A stretch of 62,451 nucleotides of DNA from an uncultured Gammaproteobacteria bacterium (GTDB taxonomy: Bacteria; Patescibacteriota; Patescibacteriia; UBA11705; JABHMO01), in NCBI GenBank assembly GCA_964434235.1, contig CAYSUN010000002.1, forward strand, positions 24,761 through 87,211. Reading direction: 5' to 3'. Shown here in pieces: positions 3,001 through 6,000 of the stretch. Position numbers: made by a program. Positions within the stretch are counted from its first letter, which is position 1. Each line of letters begins with the position of its first letter.

Positions 3001-6000
3001 GTGATATAATTTAAATATGGAGAAAAAATTTCAAAAAATAATTTTTAGTTTGCTGATTGTTTTTGGTGTTCTGCTTGTAATCGTCATTCAAAGTGCCCCA
3101 CGTGACGGCGATGACGCCGGTGCAGAGGCGGGAAATTTGGCGCCTCTGCACCAGGAAATGGAAATCCATTTCCTGGACGTGGGGCAGGGTGATGCGATTT
3201 ATATTCGCACACCATATGACCAAGATATTTTGATTGATGGCGGACCAGACAAGAATGTTTTAAGTGAACTCGGGCGAGTTATGCCATTTTGGGATCATGA
3301 AATTGATATTATGATTTTAACTCATCCGCATAGCGACCATGTGACTGGACTAGTCGAAGTGTTACGACGTTTTGATGTTAAAGAAATTTATTACACTGGC
3401 GTTTTGCATACAGCTCCAGATTATTTAACTTGGCTAAATGAAATTCAAAAGCAGAATTTACATTTGAATATAGTTCAAGATTTTTTTGCGGTCAAACTTG
3501 GGCCTGATTTAGAGTTACAATTTCTTGCCCCGCAAAAAAATCTTATAAATAAAAAGGTTGAAGAACTCAATAATACTTCAATTGTTAATAAACTTATTTA
3601 TGGTAAAACAAGTTTTTTGTTTATGGGAGATGCTGAAGTGGAGGAGGAAGCTGAGTTACTTGAAGATGTTAAAATTACCAGTGAAAATACTTCTTCCTAT
3701 GAGTTAAAATCAAATGTGATTAAACTTGGTCATCATGGTAGCACGAGCTCAAGTTCAGAAGTTTTTCTGCAAGCAGTTAAGCCAGAATTAGGCATTATTT
3801 GTGTGGGTACTGACAATGAATTTGGTCATCCACATCTTCAAACAATAAAACGTTTAGAAAGATTGCAAATACCATTTTTACGAACTGATCTTGATGGTAG
3901 AATTACGATCATTAGTGATGCTCAAAATTTTTGGATCAAAGATTAATTTGAATATTACTATTGTTTAGGCTATAATTTAATTGATTGATTCTTTCTGGGA
4001 CACCTTGCTTGTCCCTATTTTCTTATCCGCGTATTTTTCATTGTTCATTTTTCACAGAACACCTGCCTACCGGTTTACGTGCCGGAGGTATGCAGGCAGG
4101 CGGAACAGCTACTTAAGCTATTTTATTTTTTAACGTTTAATGTTTAACTTTTTCTTACTGTTTACTTTTACCCCGAACTATAACGCTATAAGACGTTAAG
4201 TTCAGGGCAAGCCTTTTAATTTTTAACTTTTTCAATTTACTGTTTATTTACTTAATACTTTTTTACTCACTTTTACTTTACCTTAATTCATAACTCATAT
4301 TTATATGGACAACCTTAATCAAAACTTTGAAAAAGCAACGCCAACGGTTAGCAAATGGCCAATGGTAGTTTTAATCACTTTAGTTTCGCTTTTAGTTATT
4401 AGCAATTTAGTAACAATGTTTTTTTTATTTATTAAAGAAAATCCACAGGAAATTCAAGAGGAAGTTGTGCTGGATAATTTTGATAATGAAGTGGCTATTG
4501 ATGAAGACAGTAATGTGGTGTTTGACGATGACTCAACTTATGTTTCAAATTCAAAAGGAGATTTACAAGTTGATTGGCGCGAGTTTCCAGCTACAGAGAA
4601 TTTTTATAATATAATGTCTTATGATTTTACTCAAAAGCAAGAAATCATAGATTTGCAAATGACAATTTATAATGTCGGGACAATCAAAAGTGAACCATAT
4701 ATAGGTCGTGGTTTATTTGTAGCTTCTGTTTCACCGGACGGAATGGCCTTGAGGGACGATAAATATTGGATTATTTTTGATGGTGAAAAAACGATTGTAC
4801 TTGGTAAATATTCTGATAAAACTGAGTGGCCAATTCTTCAAGAATTATTTGTGTATAATGACAATTTAACTTTAGCTGGGCGAGAAATGCCGGATAGTTT
4901 GGCTATTCCTAATTCTGATTATAAATTGATTAAAAGTGAGATGAGATTTCCAAAGTTAATTACTGACTATTATAATTTAGAAAAAGTTTATTCTATTAAC
5001 GGAATTACTGTGTACGGGGATGAACGATCTGGTTGTTTTGTAGTTCGTCGACCAGATAGTAGTGTCGAGGAATATCATATTAATTACCCCTTTTTAGAAG
5101 GGGATAGAAATAGTACAAATCCAAGTGTATTCAGTCAGGTTTTGGACTTTACTTGGTTAAAAGATGGCTTAAAAAATGATATTGAGTTTCAAACTACGGT
5201 TGTTAGTGGATGTGGTACAGCTGGTTGTTACGATTATGTTAGGGATAATGATTTTACGCAAACACAATTAGTGGCAGTTGGGCAAATGCCTGATGAAAGT
5301 TCAGTTTATTATTATAATGATGAAGTAATTGAAAATATTGATAATAATCCTAAAAGTAACTCTGAAAATATATTACTTAAAACTTATGGCAACTATTATC
5401 CAGGTTGGGATTCTGAGACTGAACAGCCAATTAAGAAAGAGGCTTTTAAGGATTTTGTTAAAAAATATCCAGTATTATTTTGGCAAGATGCATTTGGTAA
5501 ATGGATGCAATTCACTAATATTAAATATCAGCCATCTGTAGAATGTGGCAAACCAGTTATTTATCTTTATCCAGAAGAGGACATGAATGTAGATGTTAAA
5601 GTTGAACCAACTGGTGGCATCAAATTTAGTGACCCAGCTTATAATGGTGGTTGGTCTGTATTTGCTAGTACAGAAAGTGAGCTTCTAAATTTAAATGATC
5701 GAATTACTTATCCATATTTATTTTGGGAGGGTTATGGTTATAAATATAGTCAACCAAAGCAAGGTTTTGTTGTTAAAAGTAGTGATGTAGAAGTTTATTT
5801 GAAGAATATTTTGGCTAAACTTGGACTTACTAAAAAAGAAACTGCAGACTTTAATGAATTCTGGGTACCTGAAATGTTAAAACAAGAAAAACCTTTTTAC
5901 TTTATTACATTTTTACCACAAAGCGAATTTGATAAGATTGCTCCGTTAAAAGTTAATCCAGCTCCAGATACTGTAATTCGGGTGTTTATGGATTATCAGG

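Follow-up and report, generated by a model that had tools for sequence, protein, structure and literature searches.

Conserved structures that act in cis from within coding regions are known from viruses, as cruciform or replication elements and as frameshift stimulators. Among mobile inserts, Rickettsia palindromic elements (RPEs) and the GC clusters, or byps, of yeast mitochondria are present in multiple copies and lengthen the protein of the host gene. Here we describe a 93-nt four-way junction at positions 3094-3186 of a 62,451-nt stretch of contig CAYSUN010000002.1 (the window), from an uncultured, ultra-small bacterium placed by GTDB in the Patescibacteriota. It lies in frame within a gene encoding a membrane-anchored nuclease domain of the ComEC type. 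Our overall reading, which is tentative and slightly more likely to fail than to hold, is that the junction is a selected, lineage-specific structure occupying the first stretch of a leaderless gene that is free of protein constraint, and that it acts in cis, as sense RNA, as a brake on nuclease synthesis.

Two lines of earlier work come closest to this reading. Replication template switching is known to yield hairpin patterns of the kind found here (Monttinen and Loytynoja 2022, PMC8794818). In the mRNAs of Escherichia coli membrane proteins, programmed pauses are overrepresented in codons 16-60, roughly 35 codons past the start of the first transmembrane (TM) helix, and slow translation at these early pauses improves membrane-protein biogenesis (Fluman et al. 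2014, PMC4359368).

The junction resembles each of these systems in part. Like the E. coli pauses, it lies in coding sequence, within codons 16-60, where it is proposed to provide time for co-translational targeting; those pauses, however, are attributed to short Shine-Dalgarno (SD)-like sequences and are a statistical tendency across the genome (PMC4359368), whereas here a single 93-nt junction of -69 kcal/mol occupies one gene and the pausing is putative. With the template-switch hairpins it shares perfect arms, one-step multi-base "compensatory" replacements, and palindromy that continues into the loop, but those hairpins lie in rRNA and other RNA genes and come from ancestral reconstructions (PMC8794818), whereas the junction lies in a protein-coding linker, is read as codons, and is known from present-day sequences. 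Like RPEs and GC clusters, it is a GC-rich hairpin block that an AT-rich genome translates or tolerates within an open reading frame (ORF); in contrast to them it is single-copy, adds no length, and uses the codons of a conserved motif as half of its stems. Like the viral elements, it is a stable structure over codons with covariation at synonymous sites, but it belongs to a cellular chromosomal gene and has no slippery site, alternative frame, or conserved loops or bulges. It has four helices at one junction, as do tRNA-like cloverleaves and ribozymes (hairpin, twister-sister), but differs from them in its tetraloops and in having neither T- or D-loop features nor the internal loops of a catalytic core. 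The literature that we searched on Patescibacteria, ComEC, and leaderless genes contained no description of the junction element.

Sequence, stability, and conservation of the junction

From 3094 to 3186 the sequence reads TGCCCCACGT GA CGGCG ATGA CGCCG GTGCAGAGGCG GGAAATTTGG CGCCTCTGCAC CAGGAAATGG AAAT CCATTTCCTG G ACGTGGGGCA, and its parts are as follows.

3094..3186, plus strand: the whole 93-nt four-way junction, codons 26/27-57
3094..3103, plus strand: 5' arm of helix P1, TGCCCCACGT, linker codons A-P-R, partner 3177-3186 (repeat finder and RNAfold)
3106..3119, plus strand: helix P2 (hp1), CGGCG-ATGA-CGCCG, 5 bp in the window and 6-10 bp in orthologues
3119..3152, plus strand: helix P3 (hp2), stem of 11-12 bp, GGTGCAGAGGCG/CGCCTCTGCACC, with central AAATTT, a 34-nt near-palindrome
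3152..3175, plus strand: helix P4 (hp3), CAGGAAATGG-AAAT-CCATTTCCTG, 5' arm on the Q-E-M codons and 3' arm on the (I)-H-F-L codons
3158..3160, plus strand: internal ATG (Met48), paired with the His51 codon CAT at 3167-3169; not supported as a start site
3164..3187, plus strand: codons of the IHFLDVGQ motif (first beta-strand), rare and G/C-ending
3177..3186, plus strand: 3' arm of P1, ACGTGGGGCA, within the conserved D-V-G-Q codons (repeat finder and RNAfold)

A first, sequence-only reading of the window had described this block as 61% G+C and tiled almost entirely by inverted repeats. The composition is as stated (57/93, 61.3%, against a window mean of 32.8%); the most GC-rich 93-mer of the window is the overlapping 3096-3188, at 0.624 (all 93-mers: mean 0.328, standard deviation, sd, 0.067). 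The tiling is exact for the outer arms (3094-3103/3177-3186, 10 nt, 100%) and for P4 (12 nt, 100%), with P3 contained in the near-palindrome 3119-3152, whereas the three inner hairpins as first listed share boundary bases (G3119, C3151/C3152). The minimum free energy (MFE) structure of the window copy has 10+5+11+10 = 36 pairs, all of them Watson-Crick, in uninterrupted helices, and RNAfold gives its hairpin loops as 4, 10, and 4 nt. An antisense ORF of 70 amino acids (3011-3223, minus strand) overlaps the junction; its translation mirrors the sense peptide (…PHVQEMDFHFLVQ…), and it almost certainly results from the symmetry of the palindromes rather than being a gene.

The segment 3085-3195 folds into the junction at -68.9 kcal/mol (z = -9.3), a value that none of 200 dinucleotide shuffles attained, and its MFE and centroid structures coincide, indicating one dominant conformation. 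No other segment stands out as far in a GC-corrected sliding fold of the window: the junction lies at -7.6 sd, followed by terminators at -4.4 sd or weaker. The third strongest fold of the window by this measure (-3.8 sd) is a 16-bp hairpin (GTAATTCTCCTTGCGATTTTGCAGGGAGGATTGC) at 6236-6272, inside the codons for the N-terminal hydrophobic segment of a Memo-like ORF (6204-7088).

Amino acid composition as the source of the fold was ruled out by three synonymous-codon controls, whose means were -31.7 for back-translation with genome codon usage, -37.2 for uniform synonymous choice, and -42.7 for permutation of the same codons: 0 of 1,000 sequences in each control reached -68.9 (z = -5.7 to -9.1). 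An assembly artifact was likewise ruled out. Logan contigs from three separate lake-water metagenome runs match the window without a difference (X1 over 2900-3400, X2 over 3107-3307, X4 over 3084-3234), a 1,952-nt contig from the Joint Genome Institute (JGI; L036) is 99.9% identical, carries the junction unchanged, and has its two mismatches outside the gene, and orthologues in unrelated assemblies fold alike. Low-identity read mapping in the further runs X3, X5, and X6 returned only metallo-beta-lactamase (MBL) motifs of other organisms.

Five bearers of the element were compared: the window and the lineages P0002 (loci L001 to L003), P0003 (L004 to L006, annotated as Kuenenbacteria), P0004 (L007 to L009, annotated as Falkowbacteria), and P0009 (L037). 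In four relatives with 57-61% protein identity (L001, L004, L007, and L037) the same four helices occupy the same position as in the window. RNAalifold, applied to an unguided MAFFT alignment of the five sequences, recovered all four, with both sides changed in 13 of the 36 pairs. Pairing extends to 95.9% of cells in these five sequences and falls to 38-43% once the 3' partners are displaced by one to three columns, and no column shuffle in 500 matched the observed value on any of five measures. When the frame is fixed at 111 nt with the Gln codon as its end, fold z-scores of the bearers run from -5.3 to -10.1, compared with mostly -2 to +0.9 at 17 other homologue loci.

The helices differ in how they are constrained. 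In every bearer P1 pairs the linker Pro-Arg codons (CCACGT) with the Asp-Val-Gly codons of the motif (ACGTGG), and P4 pairs Gln-Glu/Lys-Met (CAGRAAATG) with His-Phe-Leu (CATTTYCTG). P2 and P3 fall entirely within the linker and vary in sequence and length by lineage, with both sides changed at 3 of 7 pairs in P2 and 6 of 8 in P3. P1 covaries at two pairs (C-G, G-C, U-A, U-G), and its U-A pair in L001 accompanies a Gly-to-Asp (GAC) change within the conserved VGQ motif together with the matching change in the 5' arm. P4 shows the compensatory series G-C (window), G-U (L001), and A-U (L037), with a Glu-to-Lys change.

This architecture is visible in codons and protein. The HFLDVGQ codons, which are under protein constraint, form the 3' arms of P1 and P4, and the linker codons for PR.. 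and QEM are their reverse complement, as the first reading had noticed; it follows that the junction dictates the linker peptide and forces rare synonymous codons on the motif. That reading was also right about the G/C-ending motif codons: ATC, TTC, CTG, GAC, GTG, GGG, and CAG have relative usages of 0.03-0.20 in this genome, the sole exception in the motif being CAT for His, and G+C at third codon positions is 0.625 over codons 26-57, whereas both the remainder of the gene and the whole set of long ORFs have 0.227. CTG and GTG are kept in all five bearers and GAC in four (AAC in L004), whereas non-bearers use TTA/TTG/TTC, GAT/AAT, and GTT/GTC. The sister lineage P0008 (L010/L013) serves as a natural control: it retains a linker remnant (SRGGDD...) that scores 38 bits with the covariance model, its pairing is lost (z = -0.8), and its motif codons are AT-rich (TAT TTT TTG GAT GTT). 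The G/C-ending codons of the bearers are therefore held by the structure. Because the four helices recur with compensatory changes in five lineages and the rare motif codons are kept, with AT-rich reversion in P0008, we regard it as highly probable that the structure is under selection, as had been proposed.

It had further been suggested that the structure switches exposure of an internal start at ATG 3158. This idea did not survive, the ATG being buried in P4 within a single dominant conformation; the only SD-like sequence, AGGA, lies 2 nt upstream, too close to serve, and is lost in L037 (CAGAAAATG). Conservation of the ATG needs no further explanation, since its complementarity to CAT (3167-3169), the His codon, accounts for it.

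The element is rare, since only five clusters at 90% identity carry it among 5.8 billion proteins. A profile of the five bearer proteins, searched against these, returned just the five clusters at 521-595 bits, then P0008 at 503, followed by a gap to 469. A profile of the N-terminal linker alone retrieved only short fragments, and a search of contigs with the single MBL protein retrieved mostly distant homologues. The MBL domains of the junction-bearing lineages are only 61-66% identical, and a neighbor-joining tree built from the MBL domain alone is star-like, with P0002, P0004, P0003, and P0008 together and P0001 and P0009 branching separately.

Partial or independent hairpins occur at the same motif elsewhere. 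Only three metagenome contigs contain the DNA pattern of P4: one from the window organism, one from the P0004 lineage, and an unrelated contig of 44% GC. The last (PPYF01208439, 44.5% GC, not Patescibacteria-like; L034, 733-761) encodes a homologue with IQEMKVHFLDVGQG that has P4 alone, of 13 bp with two G.U pairs, and no P1-P3; it was located through the P4 pattern and is thus ascertained for that helix. In a metagenome-assembled genome of the Anaerolineae (L015, 2990-3033), a 39% identical homologue has an independent hairpin between CTCCACGTC (Leu-His-Val codons) and GACGTGGG (Asp-Val-Gly codons), with z = -4.1 in the 111-nt frame. The near-palindromic DV(G) codons may make the motif prone to gaining hairpin partners.

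The junction belongs to no family that we could identify, and a known RNA family, a tRNA-like structure, and a ribozyme were ruled out with Rfam and ARAGORN. In the window only the two tRNAs, at 39.4-39.6 kb, score above Rfam gathering thresholds; scanned permissively, 3000-3300 gave only Scr2736, at 14.9 bits against a gathering threshold of 43 (E = 5.6). Neither ARAGORN nor RF00005 reports anything at 3094-3186, where helices of 10/5/11/10 bp and loops of 4/10/4 nt are found, and the conserved internal loops or unpaired catalytic nucleotides of four-way-junction ribozymes are missing, the conserved bases being explained by codons. A -1 frameshift stimulator was rejected for lack of a slippery heptamer upstream in the window or in orthologues, and an invertible segment between the outer repeats because inversion would scramble the conserved motif. 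One of the window's tRNAs, at 39429-39504, is read by ARAGORN as a tRNA-Ile with anticodon TAT (UAU). AUA is usually read in bacteria by a lysidine-modified CAU tRNA, and a UAU tRNA-Ile is uncommon; this organism may decode AUA without TilS.

A GC-rich palindromic block within an AT-rich ORF also recalls interspersed mobile palindromic elements (of the repetitive extragenic palindromic, RPE, miniature inverted-repeat transposable element, or GC-cluster type) inserted in frame. Between its genes, this genome does carry GC-rich hairpin patches that form a small family marked by the motif CCTGCCTGCC, but the junction has no sequence similarity to them. It is single-copy as well, both in the window by blastn-short and across 231 kb of related loci, where a covariance model of the five sequences (R1) hit the orthologous site alone. 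Furthermore, the linker between the TM helix and FLDVGQ is no longer than in structure-less homologues, as an insertion would make it, and half of the element is conserved motif. We give an inserted mobile element almost no credence.

The CCTGCCTGCC patches are an observation in their own right. With up to one mismatch the motif occurs 10 times in the window, against 0.78 expected (sites 2281-2290, 4062-4100, 7895-7904, 28747-28756, 41537-41592, and 43078-43087), mostly in hairpin-forming, GC-rich intergenic patches and often just past terminators; two of these flank the gene pair consisting of the MBL gene and an upstream gene for a NYN-domain protein. The patch at 41500-41620 contains the palindrome CCTGCCTGCCGGCAGGCAGG (z = -3.5), and the patches have no Rfam match.

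Turnover of the middle hairpin and the choice between RNA and DNA

P3 has unrelated sequences in different lineages and yet is palindromic through its center in each. In the window it reads GGTGCAGAGGCG-GG-AAATTT-GG-CGCCTCTGCACC; in L002 it is a perfect 28-mer, GTACGGGACGCAGATCTGCGTCCCGTAC; in L007 it is GTACGGAACGGTCGCGACCCTTCCGTAC, with one mismatch; and in L037 and L004 it is GGATTGATCGCGATCAATCC and TTGTTGT-TGA-ACAACAA, respectively. All three four-base P3 loops are self-complementary (GATC, CGCG, CGCG), compared with none of ten P2 and P4 loops. The closest comparison is between P0002 and P0004 (L002 and L007), which are about 90% identical in DNA over the first 260 nt: they differ at 11 of 28 nt in P3, eight of them consecutive, against 31 of 232 nt outside it (Fisher p = 0.0015), and both versions remain palindromes. 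Within the P0002 population, L001 and L002/L003 encode an identical protein and differ by only two synonymous polymorphisms, at gene nucleotides 60 and 112. One of the two, AGG/CGG, exchanges an A.G mismatch in P3 for the perfect 28-nt palindrome, with folds of -68.0 and -73.8 kcal/mol.

Complementarity that reaches into the loop is of no use to an RNA hairpin, and we therefore read P3 as template-switched and the structure as a whole as selected. The perfect reverse-complement repeat with palindromy to the hairpin center is found in P3 only, and the differences between close relatives are clustered and preserve complementarity. The proposal in the sequence-only reading that stems are regenerated by template switching thus holds in part: the evidence that replication template switching supplied the stem is good for P3, to judge from these comparisons, and absent for the other helices.

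The same signatures lend something to the idea that the whole junction is a functionless by-product, in which template switching in an unconstrained linker copied the motif codons in inverted form, correction between the arms kept them matched, and the result was merely tolerated. Its narrow distribution would be expected on this account, as would the P0008 lineage, which lost the pairing with the gene otherwise intact, and no second function-linked feature was found. What speaks against it is that the four-helix architecture persists across lineages whose MBL domains have diverged as far as noted above, that every one of the five bearers retains rare motif codons while the relative without pairing does not, and that the stepwise series G-C, G-U, A-U comes with amino acid changes, one of them inside the conserved motif. 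A block of -69 kcal/mol in an ORF should, in addition, cost translation, which would make neutral persistence unlikely. We consider a by-product improbable.

If the structure is selected, the strand on which it acts must be asked. The window copy is uninformative in this respect: the minus strand of 3085-3195 folds at -64.9 kcal/mol (z = -10.2) and the DNA-parameter fold gives -42.4 (z = -9.9), both as exceptional as the sense RNA. In the orthologues, the sense strand has about eight G.U pairs against about two A.C mismatches (p ~0.05), and the plus-strand MFE is below the minus-strand MFE in all five lineages. This asymmetry favors the sense RNA only weakly, and the promoter, described below, offers an independent argument; we think it reasonably probable that the junction acts as sense RNA in cis.

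The alternative, of which the sequence-only reading had named a single-stranded DNA or cruciform signal, is an element acting as DNA, either a cruciform or a single-stranded cloverleaf formed during replication, transcription, or uptake, which would be a site for protein binding, recombination, or replication pausing, with the RNA fold a side effect. All 36 window pairs are Watson-Crick, in keeping with such an element, and the central palindromy of P3 in every lineage would aid cruciform extrusion while being irrelevant to an RNA hairpin. The G.U pairs of the orthologues, however, would be A.C mismatches on the other strand, the loops of P2 and P4 are ordinary and non-palindromic, and there is no conserved unpaired sequence for a DNA-binding protein to read. 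The junction is also bound to one gene and one position in the reading frame, and has no second copy. Long palindromes are usually unstable in bacterial DNA, which we likewise count against a DNA-level role. On balance we find such a role as improbable as a by-product.

Host gene and promoter

The gene that carries the junction has the following features.

3002..3010, plus strand: extended -10 promoter-like box TGATATAAT, 6 nt 5' of the ATG (sequence inspection)
3017..3946, plus strand: ORF of 309 amino acids with a single N-terminal TM anchor and a C-terminal MBL nuclease domain of the ComEC type
3038..3091, plus strand: coding segment of the predicted signal-anchor helix, about residues 8-25, IIFSLLIVFGVLLVIVIQ (translation and alignment)

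From a short N-terminus with positive charge, the encoded protein runs through a single hydrophobic helix and a linker of ~25 residues to the MBL domain; the TM assignment is the hydrophobic run in the translation, and the anchor is thus a prediction. The coding segment of the anchor stops 2 nt before the junction, which in turn has its 3' end within the codons for the first beta-strand of that nuclease domain. The MBL domain matches Lactamase_B in Pfam (1.7e-14), positions 440-663 of the ComEC_Rec2 model TIGR00361 (E = 8.8e-31), and, in PDB, 9ic4_A "Competence protein" (E = 2.8e-36, query residues 46-306) and residues 532-791 of the ComEC chain 30bt_A. The gene had been called a ComEC-type nuclease gene, which is correct for this C-terminal MBL nuclease domain. 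The protein is not a full ComEC, because only the MBL part matches and the TIGR00361 score of 106.7 is under the cutoff of 190; within its 309 residues and one hydrophobic helix there is no multi-pass competence (channel) domain or OB fold N-terminal to the MBL domain. From these matches, the product is a stand-alone, membrane-anchored nuclease domain of the ComEC type. More than 6,500 homologues are found, mainly in Patescibacteria, the nearest just 61% identical. Gene order around the ORF is flavodoxin, HD-domain protein, NYN-domain protein, the MBL gene, a 596-residue protein of unknown family, Memo-like protein, and NDK; the NYN-domain nuclease gene, directly upstream of the MBL gene, is syntenic in relatives.

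The transcript is probably leaderless, to judge by the perfect extended -10 box TGATATAAT, which lies only 6 nt before the ATG and would leave no 5' untranslated region. A scan of the window for -35-dependent promoters does not list the box at 3002..3010. The arrangement TGnTATAAT, 6 nt, ATG recurs at eight orthologous loci (named among them L001, L004, L013, L014, L037, L038, and L039), and the spacing is kept with or without the junction. A leaderless mRNA offers a 5'-proximal cis-acting RNA element only the ORF as its site, and the linker after the TM helix, where the junction is located, is the earliest stretch of the ORF that is without protein constraint.

Several observations concern starts and promoters more generally. 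The GTG called as the start in L037 is probably an error, the likelier start being an ATG that lies 63 nt upstream and 6 nt after TGATATAAT. SD motifs are rare in the window, preceding 3 of 48 long ORFs. Many start codons are directly preceded by AT-rich tandem or near-tandem repeats (e.g., acttttaactttataaacttttaact, taatacttaacacttaatactt, attaagtattaagtattaag), as at the ORFs at 550, 2440, 14269-16017 (minus strand), 48127, 50720, and 59570, and L007 has about eight copies of ataacac at 2930-2985. These repeats may be promoter or UP-like elements.

A possible brake on nuclease synthesis

No bulge, internal loop, or loop sequence is conserved in the helices, only their stability and shape, and a mechanical block therefore suits the junction better than a ligand- or sequence-specific element. 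A role as an mRNA pause or regulatory element had been among the first suggestions, and the position of the junction, by analogy with the E. coli pauses, fits it: the junction spans codons 26/27-57 and the TM helix begins near codon 8, so that it falls within codons 16-60 and tens of codons past the start of the helix.

In the mechanism that we envisage, a ribosome starting at the 5'-terminal AUG would reach P1 with its P site near codon 23 and would have to unwind 36 mostly G-C pairs over codons ~23-57. While it did so, the signal anchor (~residues 8-25) would traverse and leave the exit tunnel. The nuclease domain is potentially toxic, and the brake would thereby slow or cap its production for as long as the nascent chain has yet to reach the membrane. 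Selection would preserve the helices, and template switching would provide new perfect palindromes, chiefly in the fast-turnover P3. Elongation braking and membrane targeting as the specific role of the junction is less likely than not, yet it is the role that we place first.

A sense-strand structure could also serve another purpose: a barrier to mRNA decay (5'-to-3' or endonucleolytic), an RNase III-type site cleaved on the coaxially stacked P3/P4 helix of 21-23 bp, a target of the NYN nuclease, or a hairpin that makes RNA polymerase pause and couples the first ribosome of a leaderless transcript. Such roles share all the evidence for a selected sense-strand structure, including helices that are featureless and conserved only in shape and stability, and the synteny of the NYN gene adds to the case. 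The NYN gene, however, adjoins the MBL gene in the structure-less relatives L038 and L039 too, and none of these roles would explain why the junction abuts a membrane anchor. Together we rate them as unlikely, though more deserving of attention than a DNA-level element.

The brake, as our preferred reading, has several observations to contend with. The junction is dispensable, because only five clusters have it and one relative has lost it, and the star-like MBL tree cannot separate a single origin with losses from transfer. Palindromy through the center of a hairpin is unnecessary for RNA function, and the window copy, which has no G.U pair, folds almost equally on both strands and as DNA; the call for RNA over DNA therefore leans on a weak asymmetry, about eight to two. 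No RNA sequencing runs carrying the window sequence were found. In the sliding fold, the other membrane-protein genes of the 62-kb window all lack a structure of this kind, so that it is not a general targeting device.

A bolder form of the same reading would make the junction the primary selected object in the ORF: an elongation brake on a leaderless mRNA that replaces the missing Alu-type arrest of the signal recognition particle, with stems rebuilt by template switching, and that shapes both the linker and a residue of the motif. We regard this form as more doubtful than the brake and targeting role itself.

Conserved structures in bacterial coding regions are rarely documented and hard to separate from codon effects. 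The junction is an unusually clean case, with 36 perfect pairs, covariation across five lineages, a relative that provides a natural loss of structure, and a visible imprint on the protein. It is also a concrete, datable example of hairpin turnover resembling template switching in a functional element. Should it act as DNA or prove neutral, it would still show mutational mechanisms writing long palindromes into genes. For the Patescibacteria, in which few regulators are known, it offers a testable link between leaderless transcripts, control of early elongation, and export of a potentially toxic nuclease.

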